DNA of 63,857 bases, the filler included, from Craspedostauros australis (taxonomy: Eukaryota): the NCBI GenBank assembly GCA_030167865.1. It is 6 parts of 6 records of this genome, joined end to end, with 100 filler letters (N's around TTAATTAATTAA, not from the genome) between each part and the next. Parts side by side here need not be neighbours in the genome. Positions count along the whole stretch, not along the records: positions 21,336 to 52,422 come from JALAGF010004320.1; 5 more parts are not named here. One strand, 5' to 3'. The notes below the pieces were generated by a model. It was not told the origin of the DNA. It worked only from the letters and a program-made list of their open reading frames with translations, and searched no databases. The position numbers and the translations under genes are program-made. Below are positions 3,062-41,409 of this stretch, in pieces. The stretch's first letter is position 1. Every line of letters starts with the position of its first letter.

Positions 3062-3095
<34 letters not shown>

Positions 3096-10072: not shown

Positions 10073-10154
10073 GGTCGGAATCGCACGATAGCGTAGTATG
10101 TGAGACGGAAGGTATGGCTTGTGCTGCACAATGCAACGTGTATTGTGATGATAT

Positions 10155-15323: not shown

Positions 15324-16354
15324 GATGACTTGGTGCTTTCCAGCTGTGGTTCTGTTGCAATGATGATCGCTTCTTCAATTGTGAGCCTCAGGCTATGCAA
15401 CCACGCTGCTCATTCATAGATTCTTGTGGGTTCAGCCATCGCGGAGCTTGCTGTGGCGAGGACCGCATTCGGTTTTGCTGCAGGACTTCCATGGTGCCTC
15501 TTCGACTGATGCATTGCCTTTGCAGGTGGATCAGCGGCAGTAGACGCAGCAGATGTCTGCCTGGTCGTCGCTGCACAGTTTCTGTTTCGATTCTCACCGG
15601 AACCAGCTCAATGTTGGCTTGGCCACGGCTGAGCATTTTTGGAGTAAGCAAGAAAAGCTTCTGTCAGTCCGCTTCGGTCCAAATTCATGGCGACCACAAA
15701 ATCTGATGATCCCACACATGAAGCGTGCGCACATGAATGGAATCACCAAACATCCTTTGGTTTGGCGTGCCAGTGCTGGTGTCGGTAACGACAATGAGGC
15801 GCTTGGTGTAGAACGAAGAAGATGAACTATCCTCAACTATGGAGACATCGTTTGTCACAAGCAACATGTTGGCATGATGACAAGGGTCAGCACAACGTCC
15901 ATGTCTGTTGTCCTTGACAGCATCAGGCACGGCCATTTGTATCCATTCGACTCGTTTGAACAAGAAAGATGACTGTTGGAACCACGAATGCAGGCTATCT
16001 AGGAGTTCTCACAATCATCGTTGATAGCGTCACGTTTGTGAACAATGATGGACATGAGGATTTCTCAGCACTTCGCGCTGTCATCCGAAGACGATCGAAC
16101 ATCTCCAGAACAGTCGATGCAGTAACGCAGGCAGGGCAGCAGCATTCCTGAGGCACATTTGTGGTCCAGACACTACTCTAGAATAGAAAAGATTATGTGA
16201 ACGCGTTCTCCAGTGGCCAGGTGATCCAGAAAATCGAGAGTGTCGATCTGAGTGCGAACGTTTCGTTGAGAACTGTGAGGCAGCTCCTTCTCGCTTCACA
16301 TGAACTGGTTGATCCTCTCCGATCGTAGCGGACATGTATTCGCGCTCGCCATAC

Positions 16355-18555: not shown

Positions 18556-18680
18556 GATTTCTGTGTCTCCTGTTCCGCGTTTTGTTCGGCGGTTGTTCCA
18601 CACTCATTCCATCATCTTCGATCCACTCCATCACTCGGCATCCCATCAATAGCTCCATTCTTTCCGTCTCTCTCTCCCCA

Positions 18681-18770
18681 TACCATACTATACCATACCA
18701 TACCATACCATACCATACCATACCATACCATACCATACCATACCATACCATACCATACCATACCATACCA
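18681..18770. repeat. (TACCA)18 pentanucleotide microsatellite
   Basis: Directly visible, with one TACTA variant, just upstream of the CHI-like ATG. Confidence 0.97.
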
Positions 18771-18795
18771 TCTCCTTTGCCAATATCCACCCATC

Positions 18796-19518
18796 ATGCC
18801 AATGCTCCGCAATCACAAGATCCGAGTGGCCGCCTTCGTCCTGTTCCTTGCCACAGCGACGAGGGGCAACGTCAATCATGATGGGAATGTCGGAGGCGGC
18901 GGAACAGCAGCGGTGCTGGCATCGCCAACAGCACCAGGATCCGTCTCCATCCACAGCTCGTCGCTTTCCGTAGAGGGCGTGCACCTGCCCGATTCGCACG
19001 TCCTGGACGGAGTCATGCTGCAACGCAACGGTCATGGCATTCGGTCCATCAACTTCTTCGGCTTTGAGATCAAGGCCTACGTGGCTGGACTGTACACAGA
19101 GGTGACGGTGAATTCGGAGGAGGACGTGCTGTCGTACCTGGAATCCGGCAGTCCCATGATCTTCGATTGCACATTTCTCAAGAGCGTTGGACAGGGTCGT
19201 GTGACCTCAGCGTGGGAGCAGCAGCTGGAGTACAGCGTGACGCATCGGTACGACCACTACGAGAAGGACAGGGATCGGTTCATCGGCATGTTCGGTCCCA
19301 TCAAGGCATACGGCAAGGAGATGATGCAGCTGATCGGCGACGAGACGGTGGTGTACGACCAAGGCCAGCGGAAGGGGTCCATCCCCGGCAGGGACTTTCA
19401 GCGTGCGTTCCTGAGCATGTGGTTTGGCGAGAAGGCCGTGGCGGACGATCTGAAGCGGGGCCTGCTGGGTGAACTGAATTCCAATAGCAAGATGAAGCTG
19501 GCCGTTGTGGAAGCATGA
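18796..19518 (+). CDS. Chalcone-isomerase-like (CHI-fold) protein with signal peptide
   Basis: LQRNGHGIRSINFFGFEIKAYVAGLY and IPGRDFQRAFLSMWFGEKAVADDLKRGLLG are characteristic CHI-fold termini; hydrophobic N-terminus. Confidence 0.85.
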   Translation: MPMLRNHKIRVAAFVLFLATATRGNVNHDGNVGGGGTAAVLASPTAPGSVSIHSSSLSVEGVHLPDSHVLDGVMLQRNGHGIRSINFFGFEIKAYVAGLYTEVTVNSEEDVLSYLESGSPMIFDCTFLKSVGQGRVTSAWEQQLEYSVTHRYDHYEKDRDRFIGMFGPIKAYGKEMMQLIGDETVVYDQGQRKGSIPGRDFQRAFLSMWFGEKAVADDLKRGLLGELNSNSKMKLAVVEA

Positions 19519-19925: not shown

Positions 19926-21044
19926 CTACCTGCGCCTCAACAAACCTTTCGACAGCTTTGCTGCCGCGTACTTGAACGATCTGCTGAATCCGAGAGTGAA
20001 GATGCCCTTCATGGATTGATATCTGGCTGGTTTGCCCACGGTGTCTTCCAGCTTGGACATCAGCCGTTGCTGCGCATCTCCATCGAACTTCACCGCATTC
20101 GTTCTTGTTGGCATGTTTGCGTTTGCGTTTGCGTTCGTTAGCGGCTTTCGACTCTCTGTCGATGCGGTTGATTCATGCACCGACGAATTCAAGGCCTGGA
20201 AGGAAGGCGGCAAGCATTCCCACAGGCAGCGCCGAGCCGCGCTACTCTTGCAATCCCACTCCACGCCAGCATCGCTCAGCTGCAACACTCCCTGAGTTTC
20301 CAGCGTCTGCGTAACTGAAGATTGACGATACATGGAGTGGAAGCGATCCAGCTGACCGGGTGCTTGGATCAGCTTCGTCACCTTCAATGGATCTTCTCCC
20401 CCAACCTTCATCCGAAAGTCGCCCGTGTAGCTTAACGAAGCAATCTGCATGTACAGCTTGGACCATGGGGTGGTGCCACTCTGATCTCCAATATCCTTCG
20501 ATGGACCTGCATCCGCGTCCTCATGATCGTTTCCATCCAACAACAGCAGCGACGCCGCCACTGCCGACCGCAGGTTGGTCTCCTGCGCATCCACAAACTC
20601 GTCCGGCACCGGTGTCATGATCGGCAGCGTGGGCTTGTGCAACCGACCTGCCAGATACAGCGCGTTCCACTGCAACAGATCCGCTCGTAGATCATCCCAT
20701 TGCACAATGCCGTACTTCATGGCCACGGGATCATCCACCACGTGGAACAGAACCTTGGCATCGGGCAGCGACCGCTGCAGCGTGGTTGCAATGGCTGGAC
20801 CTGACCAGCGCAGCCAGGGCGTGTAATGCTGGGGGTTCTGCTGGATGTTCTGCTCGTGGAAACGATGAGCATCGTCCACAACCAGGATCATGTCGATCAT
20901 GCCGCCGGCATGCGCTTGCGCTTGGATGTTCTGAGAGAAGACGCCGGATCCGTATCCAAACGCATGCATCAGATGGTGCTGTGGGAAGTGCCCGATGATG
21001 TCGCTGAGCTCATCGTGGGATGCAAGCTGTCCAGCATCCTTCAT
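19926..21044 (-). CDS. TAM41: Mitochondrial phosphatidate cytidylyltransferase Tam41/Mmp37 (true start uncertain, near contig end)
   Basis: AFGYGSGVFSQ, MIDMILVVDD, KYG, LYLAGRLHKP, SYTGDFRM and GEDPLKV motifs. Confidence 0.92.
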   Translation of the reverse strand: MKDAGQLASHDELSDIIGHFPQHHLMHAFGYGSGVFSQNIQAQAHAGGMIDMILVVDDAHRFHEQNIQQNPQHYTPWLRWSGPAIATTLQRSLPDAKVLFHVVDDPVAMKYGIVQWDDLRADLLQWNALYLAGRLHKPTLPIMTPVPDEFVDAQETNLRSAVAASLLLLDGNDHEDADAGPSKDIGDQSGTTPWSKLYMQIASLSYTGDFRMKVGGEDPLKVTKLIQAPGQLDRFHSMYRQSSVTQTLETQGVLQLSDAGVEWDCKSSAARRCLWECLPPSFQALNSSVHESTASTESRKPLTNANANANMPTRTNAVKFDGDAQQRLMSKLEDTVGKPARYQSMKGIFTLGFSRSFKYAAAKLSKGLLRRR

Positions 21045-21235
21045 CCTTCTGTTCGTGTCGCTGATGGCAACGTCAGTGTGATGCGGACTTCGATTGCAGA
21101 TGTATAATACATAGACCGCTTGCTTCAATGGAGAGTACGAATGTGGTTAATTCGCTGTTGTTGGTCGAGGAGGAGGATTGTCAACGTCGCAGAACACAAC
21201 GATGAGGAGCTGAAGTGATGCCGACGGAACATTTC

Positions 21236-21335: not shown

Positions 21336-21963
21336 GAAGGAAACGAGGACAAGAACAAGAACAAGAACGGCACAAGAAAGGAGGAATGATGATCGAGAGA
21401 GTGCCAACATCCTCCCCGTGGATCACAGCATGACACACACTGCGTCGTTCTGTTGACGGATTCCGACACGCGGAACAAGAAGCTGTTGTGGTCGTCATGA
21501 CACATCCGGGTGATATCGTGTCAAGTTGGTATCTTCAAAACATACAGTCCATGTGGTCGTAGATTCAATGGTTCTTCATTGACCGATTCGATCGAAAATC
21601 AGAAACAGGAAAAGTCCAACGCCGATGACGCACACGCCAACAACAGAAAAACGAACAAATGAATGAAGAAAAGAAGCGGAATAGTCGTGCAACGCAGACA
21701 CACATCATCGAAACAAACCATCATCAATGGTCTTTGTGCATCGCACCTATTGTACGACCTCAGAGCATCTGACGCATTGCGGGTCGTGTCCTGGTTCGAA
21801 CATTGGGATCATGCCATGCCTTTCTATCAAAGTGCGCAATGAAGCAACGATCACGCATTACTCACCCATCGCTCACCCATCCACAAATTCTCCATCCATC
21901 CATCCATCCATCAACCAAGCCAGGCACCTGAAGGCATCCTTTCCAACAACTTCCATCGCCGTC

Positions 21964-22785
21964 ATGATGATCCGCTCCCTCTGCCTTGTGGCCATCATGG
22001 GGTGCTCCACAGTTGCATTTGCCCCCGTTGCGACGAATGTTGCGCAAGCCACCCTGCCTTCTGACGTAGTGGACACATCATCGCGACATGTGTCATCAGT
22101 TGGACCATTGCGCATGTCGTCTGCATCCACAACGAAGCCACAGAACACGGTCATGTCTCGACGGCGAGAACTTCTGTCACGCGACGGACCCTACTTTGCG
22201 TTGGAACGACGCAAGGGCGACATCAAGTTCGGTGCCACCGCGGCGTTGGTAACCGAACTTCGGGACGAGGCCGACCGAGAATCCATCGTGGAGTGGCTCA
22301 AGGATGAGAGGTCGTTGGCCATGTCCATCTGGGATGAAGATCTGACGACGGAGTTGGGGAATTCCATCTACCGGCTACGCACCATGAATTTGCAGTTCGT
22401 CACGCTGAAGCTCGCGCCCACCGTCGACATCAAGATGTGGACCGGATTGGTTCGGAACGATCCCAACCTGCCGGTGTTTGCGTTGCAATCCGTCGCATTC
22501 GATCCCCAAGTCGAGATTCTCCCAGGCATGTCGATATCTCCGGAGGCATTGGGAATTGAGATTGAGGTGGTCGGTGAGCTACGCGCGTCTGATGACGGGA
22601 AGGGCTTGACGGGGAAGATATCGTTCGAATCAGGTGGCAAGCTCCCCGCTCCAATGAGGCTGCTTCCGGAGGGTGTGCTGAATGCAGCGACGGCCACCAT
22701 CAACCAGACGGTCGTCAACTTCGCCATCAAGAGTTTCGAGAAAGGGGCGATTGCGAAGTATCAAGAGCACCTCGAATCGAAATGA
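21964..22785 (+). CDS. DUF1997-like plastid-targeted protein; copy 2 (same locus as 17106-17927)
   Basis: Translation identical to the minus-strand copy. Confidence 0.65.
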   Translation: MMIRSLCLVAIMGCSTVAFAPVATNVAQATLPSDVVDTSSRHVSSVGPLRMSSASTTKPQNTVMSRRRELLSRDGPYFALERRKGDIKFGATAALVTELRDEADRESIVEWLKDERSLAMSIWDEDLTTELGNSIYRLRTMNLQFVTLKLAPTVDIKMWTGLVRNDPNLPVFALQSVAFDPQVEILPGMSISPEALGIEIEVVGELRASDDGKGLTGKISFESGGKLPAPMRLLPEGVLNAATATINQTVVNFAIKSFEKGAIAKYQEHLESK

Positions 22786-23045
22786 ATTCCATGCAGCAGG
22801 AACAATCTGGATTCGAAATCAAATCGAAAGTACAACACCTTATCTATGTGGTAGTATTTGGAGAGATTGATCCAGCCTTTGTCTCTTCTAGAGATTCATA
22901 CAGACACATATTCCTAGGTTAGCTTCATTGTACCACATCGTGCAGCTTCCAAGCCATCTTGTTATCTCCACTCGCAGGAGCGGGAGGCCGAAACACTGCA
23001 AGGTCCTTCCGTCATCTTGCAACTTATGAATCTGGTACACATGCA

Positions 23046-24752
23046 CTAGTATATTCGGATGGAAAGAAGCGCCGATCTCATCGTGCTCATGATGAAAGCG
23101 AGGAACGCTTGCAGCTCCGGCAGTTCTTCCTCCAGAATCCAGGCGAAGGTGAGGACGTTGGCGGCGATGCTGCAGCACAACCAAAGCCACTCGCTTCTGA
23201 CCCGCTGCGGCGTTTTGGACACGTACGCTCCGAAGCGGGTCTTTGCAACCTTTTGGGGAAGCTCGGCTGACTTCCAGACGGATTGAATGCCTTCAATACC
23301 AAGATTGCTGTAAAGGCAACCCACGAGGATGAGAACGGAACCCAACGCAGCGCCGGCTCCGAGTTGCTCTCCCATCACAACAGATGCGAACGCCGTTCCG
23401 AACAATGGCTCCGTTGAGAAAATGAGCGTCGTCTCGGCAGCTGTAAGCGTCCGCAGGGCCTGCGTCTCCATCAGGATCGTGAGGCCTGTGGTTATCAAAC
23501 CCGTCCAAATGATACTCAGGATGATGGAGGGGGACGTCAACCATTCAGCCCATGGGTACGACTGCAGCATCGCAACGTCTGTCGACCACACAGCGTATCC
23601 AGCCGATGCAAGAGCGACGGCCAAGAGCTGCGCGGCTGTGGTACGGCTGGCCTGGCCTGGAAATCTATTCATGGCGCTTTCGACTCTCCAAAAACCGATG
23701 CCAAAAGCAAGGGGTTGGATGAAAGATAGCAGATCACCCCGTGATAGCAAGGGCTCTCCACTTTGCAGCTGTCCACCACCAAGTTCCAGCATGCCAACCC
23801 CAAGCACGGCCAGCATCGCCCCAGCCCATTCTCGACTCTTGAGCTTCTTGCCTGTTGCGAACTCAATGAGCGGCACAGTGACGACGGCCAACGAGCAGAT
23901 GAAGGCCGACTTCGATGCGTCCGTAGTTTCCAAACCGATAGCCTGTGCGATGTACCCAATCGAATTCCAGAGGCCGACCTCAAATCCCAACCACGCAGCT
24001 GCGACCGTGTCCTGCAGGGAGACATCCTCTTTTGGATTTGGCAACAGCCACGGGAGGCCCGCCAACGACGCCAGTCCGAATCGAAGAGTGGTGCTGACAC
24101 CAATCGGCAACGAGTCACCGAGTAGTTTGACGAGCGAGAAATTGGTTCCGTACAATGCTGCGGACGCGAGCAACAGCAACCGCGCTCGCCAAACATCTGA
24201 AGGATCTCTGTTGGTTGCTTCGCCTTTGGATGCAAGCGCTTGCTCGTCCGAACTGCCCTTGTTCATGCCGCCGGAGTTGCTATCGTTGTGTGCATCTCCT
24301 TCGTACGAGTACCGTGATGTTTCACAGCTCGTTCCCTGGTCTTTGTTGGATGAGTATGCATCCAGATGCGCCCGTTCATCGTCAGAATCACGCGAGTCGA
24401 ATTTGATGGCATTGTTCGTGTCAATGTCCATCTGCATCTGGCACTCGCCCGCTTGCGCACTATGAGTGGAAGTTGCGGAGACTGATGTGGCTGATGACAC
24501 CGACGATGATCGTGACACAGGCCTTGATGGCCGTGACATGGAGTCGTGTTGGAGCCGCGATCCGTTATCGCCTCTGGCTGACGCAAAGAGGCCTGAAGGC
24601 GAAGCAAAATGGGACAGCCCAGGTTTGCAGACAGAGCCACCGCGCTGGAGCGAAGGCCGGTGAGGGCATGTGGAAGACATCGTGAAGGGTGTGACTGTGT
24701 CAGCGCCGAGCCGACAGACTACGAACAGAAGGAGGCTGGATTTGACCATCAT
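23046..24752 (-). CDS. EamA/DMT-family transporter, probably plastid-targeted
   Basis: Signal peptide plus long Ser-rich leader, then many TM helices with LYGTNF, GLETTDASKSAFICSLAVVTVP and AAETTLIFSTEPLFG motifs. Confidence 0.88.
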   Translation of the reverse strand: MMVKSSLLLFVVCRLGADTVTPFTMSSTCPHRPSLQRGGSVCKPGLSHFASPSGLFASARGDNGSRLQHDSMSRPSRPVSRSSSVSSATSVSATSTHSAQAGECQMQMDIDTNNAIKFDSRDSDDERAHLDAYSSNKDQGTSCETSRYSYEGDAHNDSNSGGMNKGSSDEQALASKGEATNRDPSDVWRARLLLLASAALYGTNFSLVKLLGDSLPIGVSTTLRFGLASLAGLPWLLPNPKEDVSLQDTVAAAWLGFEVGLWNSIGYIAQAIGLETTDASKSAFICSLAVVTVPLIEFATGKKLKSREWAGAMLAVLGVGMLELGGGQLQSGEPLLSRGDLLSFIQPLAFGIGFWRVESAMNRFPGQASRTTAAQLLAVALASAGYAVWSTDVAMLQSYPWAEWLTSPSIILSIIWTGLITTGLTILMETQALRTLTAAETTLIFSTEPLFGTAFASVVMGEQLGAGAALGSVLILVGCLYSNLGIEGIQSVWKSAELPQKVAKTRFGAYVSKTPQRVRSEWLWLCCSIAANVLTFAWILEEELPELQAFLAFIMSTMRSALLSIRIY

Positions 24753-25603
24753 GGTGAGGGAGAACGTTGCTTGGATGAAAGTAGAGTTGGGTATGAGTGA
24801 GCGTGAGCGCGAGCGTGAGAGTGGCCTGGTGCTGCTGTTGCTGTTGTTCCACTTTGCGTGTCTTGAAATGTGCTGATGCCCGTCGGACAGGAGGAATGAT
24901 CTGTCCTGTGCTGACGCCAGCAACAAGCAGTGTCCCACCAGCGTTTTGTCAAACACCGATCAGTGGTCAGTTCCTGCGTGTTCGTTTTTCCGCGGTTGGC
25001 TTGACACTTGGAGGGGGCCGAGTGCCTATTGTGCACGTGCATTTGCATGGAGTTGGCTTGCATCTGTTTGTCTCTGTGTGTGATTGCCCTTCGTTCGCCT
25101 CTGTGTTCTCTCACACTTTCTTTCTTCCTCTCTTCTTTGTGTTCGTGGTTGTGGGTGGGTCGATGACGGGTTCGTGTTTGCGAGAGTTTGTGACATGGCG
25201 CGATCCATCAAAGCCCATCAACAAGTCGCAAGATTTGGACGACAGATGTCAAAACAGATCCGGCCTCAGCCAATCATCATCCTCGTAAGTTGAAGTTATC
25301 TTCTCCAAAGAACACATTCCACGTTTTCGCATGTTCGCCGCGAAACAGATGCTAGCGATGCAAAAATAGGTCACTGGTTCATCGGTGCATTTGCTTCGAT
25401 GCCGCTCACAAATGCACCACAAACATGGAGCAGTCGTAGGGTACAATAAGACTGCCGTGTATGGTATGGTATATATTATACAATAGTATTATGTAATGTT
25501 ACATTCAATTGGTATGTTTGTGTGATGGACAAGGACTCGCCCACAAGGTACAGGTGAGCGTTGCATCCAATCCATCGCCTAGAGGGGGAGGGGGGCAACC
25601 AAA

Positions 25604-28600
25604 TCAGTCTCTACGATCCATGCCGCTCTGGATGTATTGCAAGATGGAACCAAAGCGATCGGCAGCAAAGACGGTGTCAAAGCGGTACTTGTGCAGGAAG
25701 TCCCTGGCGACATACTCCCAAGTTTCTCGCTCCTGTGCCTGTTTGGGGTCGACATCGTTTGGTGTGATCTCCATCATCTTGTACGCGTCCTCGATCTCGT
25801 CTCGGAATGCCTCGCAGACGAATTCACCCAGCTTGGGTGGCAGACGGTAGCGAACGACGTATTCCACGCCGAAGAAGGCGATCGTGGCGAACAGGGCCAT
25901 CGAAACGCTCCCAAGAGCGACGTAGAATGGAAGCTCGACAGCAGCGTCGATCTCGTCGTCATACGCTTGGACGGCAAGAGCCCAGGGCAACGAAACAGCG
26001 GCGCCAGTTGCCGCTGTCACCCGCAGTGTGGTGAGGCAGATCTGAGTCATCGTGACCGTCCTGACGAGAGAGATATTCTCCTTCGAGAGGGCAGTGGGCG
26101 CCTCGGATACCTTGTTGCCAAGCACGCTCCACAATCCCAGCAAGATGACTAGTTTGCGCAGCAGGTGAAAGATGGCAAGGACTGCTCCGACAGTGGATGC
26201 CAACAGCGCCCATGCACCTGCTTCTTCCACTCTGGTCGGTCCACCGGCTCTGCCAACGATCCTGGCGATTGAGAAGATCCAGGACGCCGTGAATACGAGG
26301 AAGCCCGACATGAACACCAGCGATGCGATTTCGCTTTCGCGTGTTGCGTGGTACAGCTGGTAAAGATCCTGCACCTTGCGTCGCATGATCTCGCCACCTG
26401 CGATCTCCGACAGTTCCTTCGCTTGCATGGCGATGCCGAGAGACTCTGTTTGGATCGGAGACAGCGGCATGGGGCCCTCCGCCGATGCGCAGCAGAACAT
26501 GTTGTAGAAGTACCGGACCGCGACGGTGCAGTCCCAGTGCCAGAATCTGCGCTGCTTGAGGAAACCGAATCGTGTCGGTCCCCGCTGGAGAGAGGTTGCC
26601 AAGATCGAGCTGAACCGATTCAACCTGTAGAACAGATGGGCTGCTTCGACGCGATGCGTGGAGTTGCTCTTCTCCGATGTGGATGACAGCATCCGCTGCA
26701 TCTCGTCGCAGCCGCGATGGATGTTAACCAGATGCTCCTGAACGTACGAGTTCTTGTGATACACTTCAGTGATGAAGTACGTCGTCAGCAGTCGATCGAA
26801 TTCATCCAAAGCGGTGGGGTCGTTCCTGTTGTGTTTGAACTCGTTGTACACCTCCACGAAAGACTTCGGGTCTTCTTCGCCGTAGTACTTGACTGCATCG
26901 ATGAATTTCTGAACCTCCGCGTCCATGTGCGCCAAGAAAGGGTTGAGCCTCTCCGGTACGCCCTGCCGTTCCGTGTTGCCCATGAGACAGAACGCCGCTT
27001 TCTTCACGCCCTGAAATTTGGCGTCGTGGAATACAATCCTCGCCTCCTCGTTGCGGATCTTGTACTGAGACACGTTGGCCATGGTGCCGAAGGACAGGAC
27101 GATACTCAGAGCACCGACGATGGCAGAGATGATCCCTGCCACATCGTTCCCATCACCCAGAATGTCGATGAGGTTGAATGCGACCGCGCCTGCAGAGAAG
27201 GCCGATGCCAGGGTGAGCGAGTTGGCGAAGTTCTGTGCCTGCACGGCAAAGTCGTCGACGATGGAATCGACGGACTTGGGCTGGACGTAGATGTGGGATG
27301 CCATGCGTTTGTTGTACAAAGCCGCCTTGGTTGCGAAGTCCATGATCTGATCCACGGTGTCCTCCAAGCATTTTGCAACTTCGCAATGATACTCTGCCAA
27401 TCGAAGAAGTGCGTCATTCTCGATGCCATCGATGTCAGCCATGAATTCGCTCCAATACATGGCAGCTCCGAGCTCCTGTCGTCTGTGCACCATTTCTTGC
27501 TTGCGCTGCAGCAGCGCCTCCTCGAGCCCTGCGCTGGAAATCGTCTTGTCCGCCTTGACCTCCGCCACGAGCTTGTTGAAGATAATATTCTGCGTGATCT
27601 CGTAGAACGAATGTCGGAACATTTCGTTCAGCTCCATCCCTTTTGGGATGAGGGAGGCCGCGAACTTGCTCTTCCAATCGTTCGACAGGACCTTTCGCAT
27701 ATCCTGCTTGGTCTCCATGAACTCGATCACCTTGGAGTGCAGGTAATCGATGCCTTTCTCGTATTCGAATCCTGGTCGAAGAAATCCGTCCCGGCCGTAG
27801 TTGGTGCCGCATCCCCTGGTGACGACTTCGCTGTTGGACCAGTTGGTTTCTTTCGAGTACGTGCGGAATCGATCTTCGAACGAAGTGCCATGGATTGCTT
27901 TCTTGATGAATTCGTTGAACAGCATGGCGTTGATGCATGCGCCGGTGAGTCCGCTGTAGCGCATGAAGTGCGGTGTGGACTGCTCATCGCCGACGAAGGC
28001 AAACACGTATCCCTTCGCTTCGTTGTTCAGGCGCACGGTGCGGTAGTTCACGTAGTGGCTGACGGGGAAGGTCGCCAACGCGACTTTGGATTCCTGGTTA
28101 CCATCGGGGTTCCTCGTCAGATTTCCTTCCCTTCGCACCATGGTGTCTCTCTTCATTTTGGAGATGTAGCCTTCGACGTTGCGTGCCAGAATGCGCTTGC
28201 GTTCCTTGATGATGACCTCATACATCTCCTGTGGACGGTCGCTCACGCGGAAGCTTTCTCCGACGGGGAGAGTGGACAGCTCGACATCTTCGTACGAATT
28301 GATGATGTAGATCCTTGGTACCCTCTTGCGTGCTCCTGGGTTGTAGACATCCCCATGCCGAATGGTCTCCAAACAGGCGTCGTACCAGAGGCGGTCGATG
28401 TGGTGGGCGAAGACATTCTTCAATCTGTCGATACTCTTCTTGTGATCGTCCGCCTTGTACTTGAGGCGCAAGCCGGTCACGAGTTCCTCGGCGGTTTCGG
28501 TCTTCCAATGTTCATACTCGCGGCAGAACTCCATGCCCAGGTAGTAGTTGTCCCCCGTCTCGAAGAATCGCGTTTGGAGAGTCTGTCGTTGGAACGTCGG

Positions 28601-31600
28601 CGAAAGGTCGGCCAGCAGCTTGGTCGCCTTCACGAGCTTGGGAAAGACAGGATCGAACTCGTTCAGGTCGTGATATCTGGATTCGTCGGCGAGCTTGGCG
28701 AAGTGAAGCTGCCAGTCCGTGTCATCTCTCATGAACTCGTACATGCGCTTGCAGACGAGCCGCTGGCGGACCATCTTGGTGAAGTCGCCGATGATGCGCG
28801 TGTTCTGGTCGTTCGTTGATCGGAAGTCATCCAAGAGGCCTTGGCCCCATCGCTTCTCGCCGAAGTTGTGCATGCCAAGCGAAATCTTCAATCCCTGAAT
28901 GCAACAGACGCCGTATGGCTCCTCGGTGGTTGCGGTGAAGTGGACCTTGGACCCGTTCGGTTTTCTGAGAGGATTGTGTTCGGAATGATTCAGCATACGA
29001 GTACATGCGCCATCATGGAAGCGAGCCAAGATGAAGGATGGGACAGAGCATGAGTGGAGCGTGCACGATTATTCAATAGTTGGCGTGTGAGTGTCGATGA
29101 GCGAGATGGCCGATACAGAGATTGCCGAGAAAGGAGCAGGCCGCCTCAGAACAGAGGTGCAGCATGCCAGGTACAACGCATTGTCAAGCTTCCGGCCTCA
29201 ATCCCGAGGTGCACTTACCCGATGCATTCAACAACGTGTGTGTGGCCGACGTCGAGGCTGAATTTCTCCTTGCGGATAGACTTCATGGCCAGCTCGTCTC
29301 GTGCATAGCCACCAGAAAGACCCTTCTGCACGCATTCCAGAATCACATGGCTGACATCCGCGTGGCGCGAGGTGCCCTTCGGGTAGACCGATGGCAGGTT
29401 GTGTGCCGTGGCCTTGAGATCCGACACGCCCTTCTTGAGGGCGGTGAAAGAGTACGTGCGAGAGATGAGGTCAACTCCTGTGAGCTTGAAGGGTAGCACT
29501 GCGCCTTCCAATCGAATATATACGCCGTACTCGACACCGATCTTCAGGTCGTCCAGGCCCAATGGCTGTGTGTAGATGAGGTCGGCAACCTTCCAGGACC
29601 AATATTCCTTTGACGGGGCGCCATTGGGATCGTGGCGGCGGAGAATGCGGTCGTCAATCTTCAGCGCATCGCCAAGCTTGATGAGATTGTTCGTTGACAG
29701 ATCGTAACGGGTCTTCGAGTTGGTGAAACACTGGATCACGCCCTTGGACCAAAGCTTGGACACTTCCACATGCAGCATGTTCTCCAGGTCCTTGATCGTG
29801 ATTTCAACGAATCCTTGGGAGGCTCTGTGTAGGCATTATGGTTGTCAGTATCAGAGTGTCCAGGGTACACATGGCGAGACGTGATTGACGTTGGAAATTG
29901 TTGTTGTTGTTGGCGGTGGTGGTGACGACAGCGATGGTACGTGGAATGAACGCAGGCGAGACGAGTGAGATGGCGAAGATCATGAAGCAGTAGATTCGGT
30001 TGTAGTGGACACCACATCCACAGCCATACACGCATACACGTCCGCATGCACAACATCAGCAGCATCATTTGAATCCAAGGCATGCGCGATGCAAGAACGA
30101 AGCTGAAATGCAAGCGAAAGGCATCATGCCAAATCACATCCACGACACTTACAGTGTATTGCCCAGCTGCGCATCGGTTTCGCCTGACGCAGGGATGAAG
30201 ACATCCTCGAAACCCGTTCCGAGATGGTACCGCAGCATGGCGATCCATCGTGCATCCAACCGAACGATTTGCGCCCGTTCGAATGTCGAACCGCCCTTCG
30301 TGAATGCATCTCGTGCTTCGTACAGCTTCATTTTGCCTCCGCTGACGAGGACGTTCTCGGTGCAGTGGATGGTGGTCATGAGGCCGGTGGGGCCACCTCC
30401 GATCACGATCATGGACTGCGGTGGCACCTTAACGATCTTCGTGCGTGCCAACGCCACCCACTCAGGATCGACCGGCGTGAACTTCTTGTGGCACATGAAT
30501 GGCTGATATTCCTTCGTTCGCGAGTTGTACGTGAAGTACTGCCTGCCTGGCTCCAAGTCTTGCAGTGCCACCTGCACCTGATTCGATCGTTGGACTTCGC
30601 GCAGGACATTGAGGCGAGCGTTGTCAAGCTCTTCGCAGCACAGCTGCGACAGGACCATCAACCGCCGCAACGCGATCCTGAGGTACGTGAATTCCATGAA
30701 GGCGTTGTACTTGAACTTCTTGCCTTGCTCAAGTTCCATGTACATGTAGGCACGCTGCGCACGCGTGACCGCTTCGGCCACTGGCACGTAGGCTCTGCAG
30801 CGCACGGATCCGTTGTGGAGACGAACGAAGCGCTCCAGGCCGGAATCGACGTGGACGAAGCGATGCAAGTCCCTTCCAGTGACCTTCGCGTCGTAGATGT
30901 ACGCGGCACGCTTCTCGCCTTCCTCCAGCCAGTACCATTCGTCATGCACGACTTCTTCGACGTAGTCGCCCTGCGACAGCTCGCGGATGGCCTCGTTCAG
31001 GAACTCGCGACGCATGCCACGCTGCAGCAACGTTTTAACACGGCCGAGCAACAGCTGACATGGTCGCGTCTTGACGAGCTTGTTCTTGACGAGTTCCATG
31101 AGCGTGCGCTTGTCACGTGGGGTCGTGAGCAGCAACGCACCGCGGATGCGCCGCTCGCTGACGTTGGGACCTGGGTTCTTTCCCTTGAGGTGATTGATGA
31201 TGCCCTTCTTCAGGTCTTCATCCGATGGGATCTTCCACGCGACCTGCGTCATGAGGTCGTGGCCAAGCCGGATGCCAATCTCGACGGCTGTGACGGCCTG
31301 GTACACCTCCTGCGCCTCTTGCTCGATCAATTCGCACGCCTGCAGTATGGCGTCCAACCACGAGCGCAGGGGATCGATGACGGATGCCACGCCAGCGCAC
31401 AGATTGGTGACGATTTTGTCCTGCATGTCGCGCACGAGGGTCTTGCAGCCATCCGATTTGCTGCTGGGCTGGAGTTCCTGACAGTGCCTGACGAATGGCC
31501 CCAGCACGGTGGCGTCCCATCGATTGCGGCCGCGCAACGATGACAGGACGACGCAGACCGCCGGCATGTGGAATCGCATTGCTTCGAAGGGATCCAGCTG

Positions 31601-33817
31601 TTCCATGCGCTGATGGGCGAAGTTGCCGGACGGTTGGTCGAGCATGCTGTGCCAATGCCAGGCTACTTGGTACAAGGTGTGGACGACGCCGTTGTTGACC
31701 ATCGTTGGAATGGGCTGCGCGACGAACGTGCGCAGGATAGACTCGTCCGTTGGCAGGCGATGGTCGAGGCGGAATTCGTTCGTTTTGATGCGCCCAAAGT
31801 AGGTGCCGTACTGGTTCCTGTTGGCCAATTCGAAGCCGTTGGATTCCGCGGCCAGGTTCTGCGCGATGGTGGAAGGATTGTCGGTGAGCAATCCTTCGCG
31901 GCCCTGCGTGATCACCCTGGTGATCCAGTTGCCGGGGCCAAGAAGGAGCCTCGTGATGCTGGCCAGCGCATGGTCCCTCGTGGCCGGAAAGTTCTCCGTG
32001 GCTGGGAACGAGGTGATGCCCACAAAGGGGAGCTGCCCCCATCCATCGAACCATCGATTCCACGTGATCTGGGTGTGCCAGTGCCAGAAGAAGTCCCATC
32101 GCGGCAGGATGGTCTGCACGAGGATGCGGCTGACGTTGCGGTTGCTGAAGGCGATTCGCAGGATGTAGTCCACGTCCCTGCGGCTCTCCAGATCCATGGC
32201 CTCGATGACCTGTCCCAGGACGTAGGATTCGTAGCCGGTGAGGAATGGCAGGAAGAGCTGCAGCTGGCGCGTGACACGCGCACCGGACATGGGATCGAAG
32301 GTGTTGCAGAGCAAGCGGCGCAAGATGCCACGCCAGGCTCCGCCGAACGTACCAATCTCGCTGCTGACCTCGAAGTCCCGCACGCTGCCTTCGTACAAGC
32401 GTTCGCGCAGAGAAACGGCGCGTTCCGCGAAGAAGAGGGAATCTTCCTGCGCCGCCGGTGCGGTCGTCTTGGCTGCGGTGACAACGAGCGCACCGGCGTT
32501 ATCCATCTCCTGGTAACGCTTGGAATCCAGGAAGTGCTGCTGCGACACGACGATGGATGTTCCGTTCTCGATATCGAGCAGGCGCTTGGGTGCAAAGCTC
32601 TGGACGCGGTCCAACGCCTTGACTTCGGGATCGTTGAGGTTGGTGTAGGTGTCGGCGCGCTGCTGCGACTTCCACGCACCGTAGGAATCGTCGTAGGATG
32701 GCAGGGATTCGTTGCTGAGCGTGTGTCCCGATTGCAGACGGTGCGAAACTCGGAGACCTGCCACGGGGAGCACCGACAGCCTGACGGTCTTCTTGCCGGC
32801 GATGGTGGAGCCCGTGCGATCCAGGAGGGGTGAATCCTCCTCCGTGCGGCCAATCGGCACGCCGCTCTTCTTGACGCCGTCGCCGCTTCCGAGAGTCTGA
32901 CGCAGCCTTCCGACGAAGGAGTTGGACTGCTTGATGCGCTGCTCCTTCTTGGCCGCTGCGGTGGCTGCTGCTGCGCGTGCGGCGCGGCTGCTGTACCTGC
33001 TGCCAACGACAACGTCCTCCGCATCCCTCGCCTTAAGCAGGCTGGGGACGCTGGAGGGCGGCGGTCCTCCTGGCAGACGCGTGCCTGTGGTTCCGGCAGA
33101 CTGGATGGAGGCGGCAGATGCAACGGTGCTGCCGCCATGTTTGTTCCTATTGTTGTTCCTGTTGTTGCTGCTGCTGCCAGTCTGATTGTTTTTGTTGGTC
33201 TTGCTGCGTGGGCGCGGGGGTGGCATGATCGGCTGCGATGTGACGGCGTCGCTCGTGGCTTGGGGAGAGGCGTTGAGGTTGGCAAAGGCGGACTGAGGTG
33301 GGGCGGGACGCATGGAGGTGTCGGAGAGCAGCATCGTGGAAGATGCCTGGGTCTGTCCCATGCGCGATGACTGGCTGGACCCCAGCGGGGCATTCATCTC
33401 GGCAGTCCGGAATGCTCCTCGTGGCGGAGTCTGCGCTTGAGCTTGAGCCTGCGCTTGAGCCTGAGCTTGGACTTGACGCTGAGCAGGAACAGGAACTCCA
33501 CCAATGTCTGGCTGGCTGATGGCATCGACCGATGGACCCCTGGTGGCAGTTGACATGAGGGAGGCCACGGAAACGGGGGCCTGGATGCTGGAGGATGACT
33601 GTCTCTCTTGCGGATCTCGCTGCTGCTGCTGCTGCTGTTGGCTCATCATCTGGCGGCCTCCGCTGGCAGGCGCGTTGGCTGGCATCCGACCGACGGGCAG
33701 AGTGCTGCGGCCAACGGAGCTGTTCAGGTCGATCGTTGAGAAGCGGTCCTGGTTGCGAGATGGGTCTCCGCGAAAGGCCTCATCATGGAACTCGTCGTTC
33801 GAGTGAGAGGACGACAT
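25604..33817 (-). CDS. Very large (~2543 aa) FAD-dependent monooxygenase-like (MICAL-like motifs) protein with multi-pass membrane C-terminus; exons 33817-30153, 29824-29219, 28964-25604
   Basis: Two canonical GT-AG introns join three long ORFs in frame (7632 nt). Rossmann IVIGGGPTG...KLYEAR, FERAQIVRLD, VEITIKDLENML and AFVGDEQSTPHF...SGLTG. About 6-7 hydrophobic helices in the last ~550 aa and a disordered Q/S/A-rich N-terminus. Confidence 0.75.
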
Positions 33818-35767
33818 CTTGGGAGATGCAGAGTTGTGCCTGCGCTGCGTTTGTGTTGCCTTCTTGCCTTCCTGTCTTCTTGCGTTCTTGTCTTCTTGCT
33901 CGTCGCAGTACTGATACGTGCGAGTGCGATCAAGAGCTGCTCTGCTCAACGATTCTCGTCTTCGCTTTCGTTTTTCTTGTTCGCTTTTGTGGTTGCCACC
34001 ACCTTGCGCTTCTCCTTTGTTTCTGGATACTCTCGACTTGCGGTTGCGATTGTTGTTGCTATCCAGCCGTGTGCTTGGCTGTGGCAATGCCTCTTGGCAG
34101 GGTGGCTGGTGCTGAGGATGCCGGGGGAGGCTTCACGACGATGCTTTTTGGGAATTTGTGTGCCCTCACTGCTTGCGTCGGTGCGTGTTCGGCAGTACAC
34201 ACGATGGTTCTCGTGGTGTTGGTTATGGCGTCCGGAACGTCGCAGTTGTTCGTGGTGTGGCTCTTTGGTTGGAAGTTGCGGAAGAACGTGTTAATTCTGT
34301 TGGCACCAAAAATTTATGAGATCGATCTGGCGATCTCTTGCCTCTTTGTCGTTGGCGTCAACAAATTCGGCGCATCTCCTGTGTCTCTCAGTCGCGTCTT
34401 CCTCTCTCCTCACTCTTGCGCACCTGAATGTGTTGGTCTCCAAGCCTTCATTCCGCGCTTCAATCATTCCCAAACACAGAACAAGCAAGATCCCATTCCC
34501 CATTCACCAGCTCATCCATTCTCTCCTCCACACTCGCTCATTCACACATCAAACAAGAAGCACGCTCCCCTTGGCGCAGTCACACAAAGTGCGAGTATCA
34601 CGAGGGGCATGAATGATGTTGATTGCTCAATCAGGACCAAGATCACGCCCCTCGACCAAGATTTGTTCGTGTTCGGGTTTTTTCTCGAAGCACATGATTT
34701 GGCGCCAGATGTGACTCGACCAGGACTGCAACAGCGCCTTCTCTTGTTACGAGTGCTCCCCACACACTGCCCCTCTCTTCACAGATAGATGAAGAGATAA
34801 ATGTCTTCCGTACGAATCGAACATATCCCGCATCGCATCCATAATGCGTGACAACACATCCCCCCTGCTCAATCCAAAATCGGACTCGAAAGGATATCGT
34901 TTCGGTTTGGTCTTCCTACGATTGAATTCGATTCACTTTCGTGATGTTGGTTTGGTTGCGGAGATAGATCTATTCCAAGCAAGCGATCTGCGATTGCATT
35001 TCCTGCTTGGCAGCAGGTCTTGTCAGAGAGGTGATTTTGATCACATGGCAGCCAGTGCGAACTGAACGAAGCGTGCCCTGCTCTACGACTGCACCATTGT
35101 ACGTACGTACAAGGATCCGTGCGCAAGCTTCTTCGCGATTGATTTTGGTTGCATTCTTCTGATCTTGCTTGGGGTGATCAGTTCGCACACTTCCGAGATA
35201 CAGCTGCATACAGATGGCGGTCGTAAAGGGACACTCGTACGACTACTCTATCTATTTGCGAGCGTGTGCTGGGTGTCAACTTCTGCCATGGAACATTTGT
35301 CAACGAGGAGTCGTGGGACGGGAGGTGACATCTTTGCACATGATTTGATTGATCTCAATTCTATCCAAGAGGCAAGGAAGCGTGTCGTGTTTCGTTCACT
35401 GTTGGAAAGTGAGGGCAGAGTGAGGTAGAAGCTTTGGGGATGGGAGAACCCTGCCAGGGGCAGTGGGGATGTTGTACGGATACCGTACCGATGGGTCGCA
35501 GGCCGCACCCCATGGTACGCACTCTCGCTTCATAGATGCCTTGGAGGGTTGGCGATGTCAACTTGATTCGTAGGTGGGAGGTCTGTAGTTAGATGTCTAG
35601 AGAAAGGGAGAGAGAGAGGCCACAACGGGCAGCAGAACTCGTCGAGACGAACAGAGTAAAATTGAGTTGTGTCGCATCGGCTGCTACGTATTCTATGACA
35701 CTGTTTACTCGTAGAGTAGATCGCAGAGTACTCCGTTTGCATACCAACAGTGCCAAAGGCAAAAGCA

Positions 35768-36820
35768 TCAGTCGCCAAAGACGACGCATCGATTGTTGTA
35801 CACGATGACGCGATCCTCCAAATGGGCCTCCAGCGCCTTCGACAGCACGGTGCCTTCCAGTATCCGTCCCTTGCGCATGAGATCGGGCACTGTATCGCGG
35901 TGCGTCACGGACAGCACGTCTTGCGTGATGATGGGGCCCTCGTCGAGATCGACGGTGGCATAGTGCGCCGTCGCTCCCACGAGCTTGACGCCACGTTCCG
36001 AGGCACGTTGGTACGGGCTGCCGCCGCTGAATGCTGGCAGGAAGGAATGGTGGATATTGATGATGCGGTTGGGGAATTGCTGCAGGAAGGAATCCGTCAG
36101 CACCTGCATGTACCTCGCCAGCACCACGACGTCGACGTCCTTGAGCAACTCCAGCTGCTTGGCTTCTTGCTCCTGCTTGTTCTGGGCCGTCACGGGCAAC
36201 ACGTGGTACGGCAGATCGAAGGTGTCCGCCACATGACGTAGAGTCTCATGGTTGCTGATGATGACCTCGATGTCCATGTCGAGCTCGTGCGCGGAATGGC
36301 GCAGCAGCAGCTCCCACAGGCAACGGTCGTACTTGGACACCATGATGCCGACCTTCGGCTTGCGATCGCGCCAGTTCAAGATGGGCTCCAACCCCATCCG
36401 GTCGCAAACATCGTCAATTTCTTGTTGGCATGCGACTTTGTCGATGCTGGCGGCGTCTGCAATGATAGCATCGTGGTTATCGTATTCAAAGGCAATGCGC
36501 TGAAAGAACTTTTCATGGTTGCGATCGACCCACTGCTCGCTGTTGGTGATGCTGCAGCCGTATCTTCCCAGGATCTGAGTGCAGGCTGCGACAATTCCAG
36601 TCTGGTCCGGTCCGGTCACGCGCAACGTTCCCCAAGCTCTTCCTTTCTTTGTTGGTTTGGGTGTTGTCGTCGGCGGTCGCGATGGCATCGACAACGACGA
36701 CGTGAATAGTCGCGTTCGTCTACTCCGGCTTGCACAGCTCGCCTGTGCGGTTGGCCTGGCGAAAACTACTCCAGAGCGGATCGGCAGACGGCGCAGCGCT
36801 GATGACGAGCGTGACAACAT
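35768..36820 (-). CDS. purU: Formyltetrahydrofolate deformylase (ACT + formyltransferase domains) with mitochondrial-type presequence
   Basis: GPDQTGIVA, VSKYDRCL, ISNH, VVLARYMQVL, INIHHSFLPAF, RGVKLVGATAHY and LDEGPII; Arg/Ser-rich N-terminus. Confidence 0.95.
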   Translation of the reverse strand: MLSRSSSALRRLPIRSGVVFARPTAQASCASRSRRTRLFTSSLSMPSRPPTTTPKPTKKGRAWGTLRVTGPDQTGIVAACTQILGRYGCSITNSEQWVDRNHEKFFQRIAFEYDNHDAIIADAASIDKVACQQEIDDVCDRMGLEPILNWRDRKPKVGIMVSKYDRCLWELLLRHSAHELDMDIEVIISNHETLRHVADTFDLPYHVLPVTAQNKQEQEAKQLELLKDVDVVVLARYMQVLTDSFLQQFPNRIINIHHSFLPAFSGGSPYQRASERGVKLVGATAHYATVDLDEGPIITQDVLSVTHRDTVPDLMRKGRILEGTVLSKALEAHLEDRVIVYNNRCVVFGD

Positions 36821-37307
36821 CTCTTCTTCGATAGATCCAACGTGGATGTATGCTCGGAGTACAACGGTGCTTCTGATGCTGCTCTGCTCTACTTTAATCT
36901 ACTTTAATTGATGTTCTCTTTATCGTTGTTTGAAAAGAGTCGAGGATGATGTAATACACGGATCTTGTCAGAGCAGCATCGCATGCTCCGGATGAGTGGC
37001 AACAGCTTCCGCGGAGGGTCATGGAATGGAGCCAGTCGACGCCAACTTTCATGGATCGCTGTCCTTTTGTGCGTTGACACCACAAGTTCTCTTTGTGTAG
37101 TCGTATTAGTCGGATACACGATCTTGGGAAAAGATCCGCCATCATCATGACCATCGCGGTCGTGACCATCATCCTTCCCGACAACACAGGAGGTCCCACA
37201 ATCAAGAGAAAGAACAACTCCCAGCAGTATCGTCTGGACGCTGAGCAAACAAAAGGCAGCGGCATACGACTCACACCTACAGAGTACTGATAGAGCAGTG
37301 TATTACG

Positions 37308-38399: not shown

Positions 38400-40247
38400 T
38401 TACTCGCTTCCGTAGAAGGTGACCGATCGGTTGGAGCCGCTGCTGGTGGCGATCCACTGGCTGGATGGTCCCCACGTGATGCCCGTGATCTTCTTGCCGC
38501 TGTACTTGGCGGTGACACCCCATTCTTTGACCGTTGTGACGACGACGCCGGAGGAGCCACCGTACGCCAGATACTTGCCGCCGTGATCGTAGGCCAGGCA
38601 GGACACGCTCGAGAGCTCCTCGTCGTCGCCCGTGTTGAGCGTCGTCATGACCTTCTGCTTTCGCAGATCCCATGCCTTGACTGCGCCGGAAGCGTGGCAG
38701 GATGCCAGGTGGTATCCGTTGTTGGAGAATTCGATGGCAGTGATGGCATCCGATTCGTCTCCGTCCTGTTCAAGTTGTTGTGTGTTGCATGTGTTGTGGT
38801 TTGCATTTGATGGTTGGTGTTGACGATTGATTGTGTTTGAAGAGATGCATGGATGAATGAGTGAAGGCAACGGCAATCAAATAGAAATAGAGTCGACAAA
38901 TACGGTACGGAAGAGGACGGTTGAGAATGTGTGAGAAGACAGCAAAGAAGTCACCGTCTTGAAAGGCTCTCCGCATAGTATGGAATACAGACATGACGTA
39001 ACATTCGCGTGAACATGGGGATATCCTGGTACTCCGATTGCGCTTGCTCAGTTGCTTACCTCCATTGTACTGGCCAAAGACTTGTTCTTGAAATCCCACA
39101 GATCGATGGATCCGGTGGATGTGGCGGAAGCGTATATAAGACCATCGGGGTGCAAGACGCCGGAGGTGTATTTGGTGGATGACGATTGCGTGAATGTGGA
39201 GATGAGGGAGAGACCATCGTCGGTGATGCCCAAGACCAGAACGGCCCCTGCCGATGTGCAGGCAATGACGTGGGCCTTGGTGGGATGCAGGCGTACATCG
39301 ACGAGCTTGCCGTCGTCGATGGAGTAGGATCCGACGGTGTTGCCGTCGGTGTAGTCGAGGAGGGTGACCTTGGTGGAACTGTGCGCGGCGACGACGTACT
39401 GGTCGTTCATGTCCAGGGTGATTGTGCTGGAGACGGAGAAGGAGTGCAGGACGACCTTCTTGTCCGAATCGTAGACGATGACCTGCTTGTCCTTGCCGGC
39501 GGTGGCGACGAAGTTTCCGTGCGATGCGATGCTGAGGATGGCCTTGCAGCTGGACTTGTGCCAGTTCTTGGCGTCGGAGTTGTCGTCGAAGTCTGACTTG
39601 AGGGCATCTGCCGATGGTGCCGCGGCGGCTGCGGCCTTGACCATGGCCTTTCGCTTGGCGTGCAATTCGTTGCGGACCTTCTCCATCTGATCTACGTGCG
39701 ACTGCGGGATGTCGTTGTCCATGGGACCGGAGGGCTCCGTCTTGAGCCTTTTGGTGGCCGGCTCCGCACCGCTGGCGTCGCCGCCGGACGCCTTCCACTG
39801 CGCCAATTCCTGGCGGGCGGCGTCGCGCTCCTGCGAGAGACGCGCCACGACGCGCACGGCCGCATCGTTCTGGTACAGCGCCTGCGACAGCTCCCGGCGC
39901 GTCTCCTCTAGGGCCTTGCGCGTGTCAAAGAGGTCCAGCACCAGCGCGTCGTACTCCTTCTGGAGCAATCCCAGGAGCGAGGGCAGCGAGGAGGCGGGGT
40001 TGGGTCTCGGAGGCACGACGGTTCCGGACCTGCTGACTTCGATGAGATCGTCCTCGGAGAGCGGTCTGGCGGAGCCCTTGTCGTCCCCGGAAGCAGCCTC
40101 GAAGGGATCCACGCCGCCGTTCTCCGCGAGCTTGGTGAGCAGCAGGTTCTTGAAGCACACATGGCCGGACGGGGTGACGACGATCGTCTGGTTTTCGGTG
40201 GCGGTCGCCAAGGCCTGGCCTGAGAGTTGACAGAGTCCTGCAAACAT
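38400..40247 (-). CDS. PRP19: Pre-mRNA processing factor 19 (U-box, Prp19 coiled coil, WD40); exons 40247-39060 and 38765-38400, ~517 aa
   Basis: CQLSG...PSGHV U-box, SLPSLLGLLQKEYDALVL...TRRELSQALYQNDAAVRVVARL, LHPDGL and IEFSNNGYHLA; phase-0 GT-AG intron 38766-39059. Confidence 0.95.
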
Positions 40248-41409
40248 CTTGCTCCTCTTTCTGGTCTTTTCGGTTCCGTTGGGTTTGCGTTTCTTTGTTG
40301 GATTGGATTGAGTTGGAGGGTTGGGTTGAGTTGTTTTGTGTCGTTCTTGGCAGGTGCAGTTGTTGCTCTGCTGTCCTGTTGCCCTTGATGAGGTTGTTGG
40401 AGGTGGTGGTTGCGCAGATCGTTGATGGGTTGCGCGTGTTGAGAGATGGGTGGAAGAAACAACAAAATGCCAAAAACGGGTTGGGTTTGTTGGTTTCGGA
40501 AATGTTTGGCTTGGCCGATAACCCGATGGAGATGCGTTGACTTGTTGGACTGCTTTAATCGTTTTCGAATCGTGACAATCGGTGGCTGGTTTGGGCCTAA
40601 CTCAGTCATTTCGGTGATTTTCCCAACGGCCGCAACTGCCACCGTGACGACACCAAGACAAGCAGCGATCCAGGCACTGGGTTTCTTGGTGGGATGTTGG
40701 CGCACCGCGTTGTGGTAAACAGCGGTACGAGTGGGGAACGGGAGCGAAGCACGAAGAGGCGGCTTCGTCTCCCACCGCGACGGTCATCTTCGTCTGCGTC
40801 TTCAGCTGCACCAACATCAGCATCAGCATTGGAAGCACGTGTCCAGCGACGATTCCACTGCATCCAACTCGACTTTCCGCGAGCGTTGGACAACCGTCAT
40901 TCGCGACCATTGTCATCGCTGTCATTGCGACCATCGCAAGCGCCGCCATTGCCACCATTGTCGCAGGTGCCTGAGCTGACACTTGATCAGAGGAGAAGTA
41001 CTGCGCTGTCTATTGCAACGGACGCAGAGTCGTCGACCTCCGGCTGAACCCCAACATCTGCGGAGACCTCCACAGTTCCATTCATCCATTCATTCATCCA
41101 TTCGCCCGCTCAATCGCAGTATCTGTAGCAACGGCAGCAACCGCAGCGAAGGATACATCCAATTGGAATAGGAGCGTATTGGAACATAAAGTATAATACG
41201 AGCAAGGAGCAGCAAAGGATTGCGAAGTCTCAAGCTGAAAATAAGCATTGCACAACAGAACTGGAGAGGACGTGTGCCATTCGACTCCGCGTCATCTGAT
41301 TCAGTCACTTCTGCGACCACCGCGCCACGTTCAGAGCGCTACCGTGCAGAGTGGACACTGTGGACACTGTGGACTGTGGAACGCAGAGCAAACAAAAGAA
41401 AGACCGAGC

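Follow-up and report, generated by a model that had tools for sequence, protein, structure and literature searches.

What does a pennate diatom carry in a protein of about 2540 residues that has a flavin-binding motif near its middle and hydrophobic helices near its end? The question is raised by a gene on the minus strand (33817..25604) of a stretch of DNA from Craspedostauros australis (GCA_030167865.1), assembled from six parts to 63,857 nucleotides with filler and called here the window. A first-pass annotation had read the gene as a giant membrane-anchored flavoprotein with MICAL-like monooxygenase motifs. The analysis described here finds a known catalytic fold, that of the group A (p-hydroxybenzoate hydroxylase, or PHBH, type) monooxygenases that use flavin adenine dinucleotide (FAD), in an undescribed, lineage-restricted, giant membrane architecture whose partner domain is without a solved relative.

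One gene and its family

Three open reading frames (ORFs) on the minus strand, 30149..34132, 29215..29835 and 25604..29068, carry the motifs by which the protein was recognized. Splicing these at canonical sites gives an uninterrupted coding sequence of 7632 nt, or 2543 residues counted from the first ATG. Here, exon 1 (30153..33817) encodes residues 1-1221 and two bases of codon 1222; exon 2 (29219..29824) encodes residues 1222-1424, the beta-rich part of the monooxygenase domain; and exon 3 (25604..28964) encodes residues 1424-2543, followed by the stop at 25604-25606. Intron 1 (29825..30152) is 328 nt long and reads GTAAGT...ACAG; intron 2 (28965..29218) is 254 nt long, reads GTAAGT...TCAG, and splits the Gly codon of a conserved G-K pair. 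Both are phase 2. The seven motifs stand in the spliced protein in the order that the first-pass annotation gave them: IVIGGGPTGL (residues 1137-1146), LYEAR (1165-1169), FERAQIVRLD (1179-1188), VEITIKDLENML (1228-1239), HVVECIG (1418-1424), VALATF (1718-1723) and AFVGDEQSTPHFMRYSGLTGACINA (1746-1770). Together they span 634 residues, with 1136 residues upstream of them.

Such a model might, of course, have merged two or three adjacent genes. Prokaryote-style gene callers do break relatives into pieces of ~1000 and ~1088 residues on the same contigs. The homologs, however, argue against a merger. When long proteins were searched with the conserved half of exon 1, 38 homologs of 2138-2702 residues were found. 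Compared by BLASTP, the spliced model aligns with 34 of these in a single high-scoring segment pair that runs from residue ~320-700 to residue ~2540, and with the other four in two colinear pairs. Both exon junctions are gapless in the seven of the 38 homologs that are aligned across them, and the two introns share the GTAAGT...AG form and the same phase. Further, MMETSP holds transcripts of relatives with complete ORFs (P0011 and P0074, 2301 and 2345 residues, one of them among the 38), and the Seminavis copy is labelled "expressed unknown protein." Because the full-length homologs are colinear and the transcripts complete, 33817..25604 is one three-exon gene. The worry that its exons belong to separate transcripts is not borne out, and a merging artefact is barely credible.

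Where the protein begins is less certain. Position 33817 has the first ATG of the frame; whether translation starts there is uncertain because the first ~400 residues are of low complexity and unconserved, and because the closest homolog, P0001, begins at the equivalent of residue ~315. A later start would leave a protein of at least ~2230 residues instead of ~2540. At the other end, P0001 and the window protein terminate at the same residue.

Overall, identity between P0001 and the window protein is 82%; in the conserved half of exon 1 it rises to 91%. The named copies among the 38 come from Nitzschia inconspicua, Seminavis robusta, Cylindrotheca closterium (two copies), Ectocarpus fasciculatus and Bigelowiella natans, and every one of these is annotated as "hypothetical," "uncharacterized" or "expressed unknown protein." When exon 3 was used in an exhaustive HMMER scan, 422 representatives (at 50% identity) passed E<=1e-3, and 180 of these passed E<=1e-30; the best 150 of the 422 are family members or fragments of them. 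More members are found in Amphora coffeiformis, Cylindrotheca fusiformis, a metagenome-assembled genome of the Bacillariaceae, the centric diatom Ditylum brightwellii, and a JGI Psemu1 model. Thus, a conserved, unnamed family of proteins of 2100-2700 residues is distributed over diatoms, brown algae and chlorarachniophytes.

A quick maximum likelihood tree was built from 44 rows: the 38 homologs, five long proteins from the exon 3 scan, and the window protein less its first 400 residues. The window gene adjoins P0001 in a starred clade with Nitzschia, Cylindrotheca, Psemu1 and Seminavis. Ectocarpus falls within the sister clade of 17 rows, while Bigelowiella and the second Cylindrotheca paralog fall outside; P0038 and P0096 are long branches whose placement is unsure. 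This tree, together with the members in Ectocarpus, Bigelowiella and Ditylum, means that the family is not restricted to raphid gliding diatoms. In the literature searched, from which supplements were excluded, neither a description of the family nor a mention of the Nitzschia locus tag was found, and the whole word "MICAL" does not occur in the searched literature that names stramenopiles, Phaeodactylum, Ectocarpus or Bigelowiella.

The flavin fold and its setting

The flavin domain (27701..30421, minus strand; residues ~1133-1845) spans both introns. Since the window's own domain is interrupted in this way, an 809-residue part of P0001 was folded instead by AlphaFold2, with an alignment containing 41 full-length relatives. 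The resulting model has a mean predicted local distance difference test (pLDDT) score of 83.7 and a predicted template modelling (pTM) score of 0.80, with three short disordered loops. It shows the two-domain FAD fold of the PHBH type, without a separate domain for the reduced nicotinamide cofactor NAD(P)H.

Foldseek finds at least 201 matches to this model in the PDB at E<=1e-3. Ranks 1-4 are held by MICAL1, MICAL3 and mouse MICAL, with E values from 1.4e-7 (human MICAL1) to 4.7e-7; Mpy16, PnpA, CmlS, KMO and PHBH come after them. Two further fold comparisons were made, and their best 50 rows are all flavoprotein monooxygenases, halogenases or close relatives of these. Because all 50 are of this type, the claim about the fold is solid: The central ~710 residues are modelled as a group A FAD monooxygenase domain. 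Comparison with MICAL and PHBH structures, which the first-pass annotation had put forward among its checks, therefore upholds a PHBH-type FAD fold.

This fold is much expanded. Some 370 of the ~710 residues of the domain lie outside the aligned core, among them a beta-rich insertion at model positions ~165-330 and a five-helix insertion at ~405-545, where the pLDDT is mostly 85-97. Both large insertions are specific to the family and confidently modelled. Outside the FAD motifs, conservation is highest in a beta-hairpin at model positions 464-491. Here, R464 and E483 are invariant, and F472, E473, T474, G475, D476, Y479, L480, G481 and M482 (all in model numbering) are at least 90% conserved. 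Judged from its topology, the hairpin would be part of the sheet from which PHBH-type enzymes form their substrate side. A hairpin so conserved in the predicted substrate-side sheet argues for a defined active site.

The cofactor fingerprints were counted in a 36-member alignment (the 38 homologs less P0032 and P0037). The GxGxxG motif, GGGPTG (30383..30400, residues 1140-1145), has its three glycines in 36, 34 and 36 of the 36 members. The acidic residue that closes beta-2, equivalent to Glu1167, is E in 32 and D in one. In the GD motif (27986..27991, residues 1749-1750), the G and the D are each found in 35 members, and the H, L and N that come next are found in all. Thus, both fingerprint I of the group A enzymes (GxGxxG with the acidic residue) and fingerprint III (GD) are present. 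Three of the four group A features in sequence and fold are found in the domain; the fourth, DG, is not.

Profile methods reach this relationship only at its margin. Half of 20 homologs scanned have a sub-threshold Pfam match to DAO, NAD_binding (NAD_binding_8/9), HI0933 or Glu_dehyd_C, and the sub-threshold Rossmann matches coincide with GGGPTG. Run against PDB sequences, the family profile meets the group A enzyme AfoD only at the Rossmann start, over the first ~55 residues (E 0.024-0.036), besides weak helical matches. A phmmer search of the PDB with the tail of exon 1 returned matches at E>1 only.

Set beside its fold relatives, the domain shares with the group A enzymes PHBH, HspB, UbiH and OxyS the GxGxxG at its start, the acidic residue that ends beta-2 and the GD before a long helix, as well as the absence of a separate NAD(P)H domain. 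Those enzymes, however, are typically soluble and ~390-550 residues long, whereas this domain has ~710 residues with two large insertions and sits within a membrane protein of 2540. They also carry DG where the family has G-K, and the family reaches no Pfam family. KMO, too, is a group A enzyme anchored in the membrane, by helices at its C-terminus, and the fold matches include the full-length rat protein (6lkd, solved in meso). KMO is, however, only ~480 residues long with a simple C-terminal anchor, and has neither the N-terminal 1100 residues, nor the inter-hairpin domain, nor the large insertions of the window protein. For a group A enzyme, it is unusual to find the flavin domain between an N-terminal fold without a solved relative and three putative membrane hairpins.

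That N-terminal fold is the conserved domain at 30413..32620 (minus strand; residues 400-1135), which is mostly alpha-helical. Modelled with the same relatives, it has a pLDDT of 81.7 and a pTM of 0.75, and is nearly all helix; an SH3/Tudor-like small beta-barrel (30779..30961, residues ~953-1013) lies within it. Foldseek finds no match for it in the PDB at E<=1e-3, and the ESM Atlas has no usable match for this domain or for the C-terminal 660 residues. In a search for stand-alone copies of the domain, the best 120 of 139 matches seem to be family members broken up by gene calling, or pieces of them. In front of it lies the low-complexity region (32621..33817, residues 1-399), which is rich in S, A, Q, P and R, contains a QA repeat, and is not conserved in the family. 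The interval 32000-34000, which overlaps these unconserved first ~400 codons, is the most GC-rich of the window (0.616) and holds long ORFs in several phases on both strands.

On the C-terminal side, family-averaged hydropathy over 36 sequences shows six conserved hydrophobic segments. The first-pass annotation had counted some six or seven transmembrane helices there; the number stands at six, but these form two groups (2+4) rather than a single block, with ~250 residues of helical, soluble sequence between them. The first pair, predicted hairpin 1 (27077..27220), comprises residues 2006-2024 and 2035-2053 joined by an acidic loop of 10 residues. The other four (25865..26320), predicted hairpins 2 and 3, comprise residues 2306-2324, 2341-2366, 2394-2417 and 2439-2457. 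The loops within the three pairs have 10, 16 and 21 residues. Loops 1-2 and 5-6 contain no Lys or Arg, but each of the segments that follow helices 2 and 6 contains four Lys or Arg residues in all. The six helices would accordingly pair into three membrane hairpins, with both termini and nearly all of the protein's mass in the cytosol. No hydrophobic N-terminal signal peptide is found in the window protein; with hairpins as anchors, the N-terminal, flavin and inter-hairpin domains and the C-terminal tail would all lie on the cytosolic face.

The tail itself (25607..25753, residues 2495-2543) is strongly conserved, with a W and two F's invariant in 36 of 36 sequences. In P0036, of the Bigelowiella clade, WW domains follow it at ~2300-2325 (E 1.3e-12, 48 bits against a cut-off of 26.9), which hints that in some lineages a cytosolic C-terminus engages proline-rich partners. 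The inter-hairpin region (profile positions ~1780-1930, residues ~2090-2240) shows faint similarity to apolipophorin III (E 0.04-0.05) and to a NudE-like coiled coil. It may be an amphipathic helix bundle, although these similarities are too weak to interpret.

A possible function and its rivals

Taken together, gene, family, fold and fingerprints make it fairly probable that the protein is a cytosol-facing, membrane-tethered FAD monooxygenase or oxidase. Here, the fold and the near-invariant fingerprints suggest that the domain binds FAD. NAD(P)H would then reduce the flavin, as it does in group A enzymes of the single-component kind, and the reduced flavin would use O2 to oxygenate a substrate or, when uncoupled, release H2O2. 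With the flavin domain on one face of the membrane, the enzyme would work at the membrane surface. The N-terminal helical domain and the SH3/Tudor-like barrel within it probably serve to regulate the protein or to target it.

What substrate might such an enzyme have? The leaning here, at a little under an even chance, is towards a small molecule soluble in the membrane, by analogy with KMO or UbiH. Small molecules are the substrates of most of the fold relatives, anchored ones such as KMO included, and the sharp conservation of the substrate-side sheet points the same way. The main alternative is a protein target, handled in the fashion of MICAL. The difference matters. An ordinary small-molecule hydroxylase would have its main value in annotation; a protein or membrane-lipid substrate would give redox biology a new branch, in algae that are ecologically dominant. 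The PHBH-fold assignment is the first testable biochemical handle on a widespread, uncharacterized algal family, a single copy of which takes up roughly 0.1% of a diatom's coding capacity.

Several observations weigh against a membrane-tethered group A enzyme. Fingerprint II, the DG of the Eppink 1997 set of group A motifs (cited in PMC6315137), is replaced after the predicted strand HVVEC by G (34/36) and K (35/36), in a position assigned from sequence pattern and predicted strand without residue-level superposition. The aligned core takes in less than half of the 809-residue model, which leaves room for catalysis unlike that of the textbook; with DG altered and the insertions so large, cofactor handling may also deviate from the group A scheme. 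In Pfam, the three exon translations give nothing significant (the best match is HI0933_like in exon 1, E 0.097), and no flavoprotein family reaches its cut-off in the 20 homologs. As for the anchor, membrane insertion and topology come from Kyte-Doolittle hydropathy only, and the fifth and weakest helix is only moderately hydrophobic and contains an Arg. The transcripts, of course, are those of relatives rather than of Craspedostauros australis.

The first-pass annotation inferred a MICAL-like or group A flavin monooxygenase, with membrane-localized actin redox control or ROS production as an unproven hypothesis. A rival reading in this direction makes the protein a functional analog or distant relative of MICAL that would oxidize Met residues of F-actin or of another protein, or make H2O2 locally, and so remodel the cortical cytoskeleton. 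MICALs not only lead the Foldseek ranking (ranks 1-4, E 1.4e-7 to 4.7e-7) but give the longest aligned cores, at 343-345 residues. They too embed the flavin domain in a large multidomain protein, and the SH3/Tudor-like barrel and the WW domains of P0036 are modules of protein contact; MICAL is itself a group A enzyme (PMC6315137). By Z score, however, MICALs tie with or trail PHBH, CmlS, HspB, UbiH and KMO: 4txi scores 17.5 against a top value of 17.9, which is a tie, and 9ewy scores 16.7, at rank 8, against 18.0 for CmlS. Nor is there a link at the level of sequence, as PDB profile searches with the family alignments find no MICAL at E<=10. According to PMC3645671 and PMC4792234, MICALs are cytosolic proteins in which an N-terminal monooxygenase is followed always by CH, then by LIM and a C-terminal coiled coil. 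The window protein does not have this architecture. Its flavin domain is central, beginning at residue ~1133, six hydrophobic helices are present, and Pfam finds CH or LIM domains in none of the 23 proteins scanned (three exon translations at E<=1, 20 homologs at E<=0.1). The conserved substrate-side residues would suit a small-molecule pocket too. Further, the family is present in lineages that do not glide, namely Ectocarpus, Bigelowiella and the centric Ditylum brightwellii, which weakens the proposed link to gliding and valve morphogenesis. With the Foldseek lead on one side, and on the other the Z scores, the missing profile match, the missing CH and LIM domains and the G-K in place of DG, the evidence favors the name "MICAL-like" no more than it does "PHBH-like" or "KMO-like," and a MICAL-type function is unlikely. 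Similarly unlikely is a bolder version, in which the family is a new class of hairpin-anchored giant flavoenzymes of ochrophytes and chlorarachniophytes, with an insertion-expanded PHBH fold governed by a novel helical and SH3-like domain of ~700 residues, that would oxidize a protein or cytoskeletal target or make H2O2 locally at the membrane surface, as a membrane-bound counterpart of MICAL with an origin separate from that of the animal enzymes.

Two other possibilities count the missing DG in their favor. A two-component enzyme of the flavin-dependent halogenase type would use free reduced flavin and halide instead of taking NAD(P)H directly, and the missing DG would be of smaller consequence where NAD(P)H is not bound. 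Mpy16, CndH, PyrH and Bmp2 also score high (CmlS is another halogenase), but the lead of halogenases in Z over the hydroxylases is less than one unit, again a tie. The signature WxWx[I/V/L]P, with a catalytic lysine, marks flavin-dependent halogenases, and the regular expression W.W.[IVL]P matches none of the 36 family members; a halogenase is very improbable. The flavin domain might instead be a non-catalytic relic, or a module for redox or FAD sensing, in a protein whose real job is structural, such as shaping or tethering membranes through its hairpins and helical domains. In favor of this are the replaced DG fingerprint, the insertions that make up more than half of the domain, and the ~70% of the protein that is non-enzymatic sequence without an assigned fold; a hairpin anchor, too, is a typical feature of proteins that shape membranes and of lipid-droplet proteins. 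Yet the FAD fingerprints (GxGxxG, Glu, GD and H...L..N) are kept in 32-36 of 36 members from diatoms to Bigelowiella, and near-invariance across lineages so distant is hard to explain without cofactor binding. A structural protein is thus doubtful, though a shade less so than one of the MICAL kind, and the membrane-tethered monooxygenase or oxidase is preferred.

Neighbors in the window

Directly downstream of the giant gene and on the same strand lies an ORF of the EamA family of drug/metabolite transporters (23049-24959, minus). Other neighbors, of ordinary eukaryotic kinds and with no evident link to the giant gene, encode a formyltransferase with an ACT domain (35771-36898, minus), Prp19 (39051-40601, minus), a PI3/PI4-kinase (44485-46395, plus) and a GRDP-like protein with a WWE domain (52672-55017, plus).

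Three ORFs for AAA_16 ATPases stand in a row on the minus strand (2766-4046, 6053-10291 and 14193-15374; E 7e-10 to 5e-16), beside long ORFs without a Pfam match (5-2869 and 11062-14193). The row looks like a tandem cluster of genes for STAND-like ATPases.

Finally, the window contains a perfect (100%) inverted repeat of 1453 nt, with arms at 17103-18555 and 21336-22788 and 2780 nt between them. Each arm holds an identical DUF1997 ORF of 366 residues, and between the arms are a chalcone-isomerase-like ORF (18469-19515, plus) and a Tam41/Mmp37 ORF (19929-21146, minus). Either an inverted duplication of very recent date or an artefact of assembly could account for the repeat.

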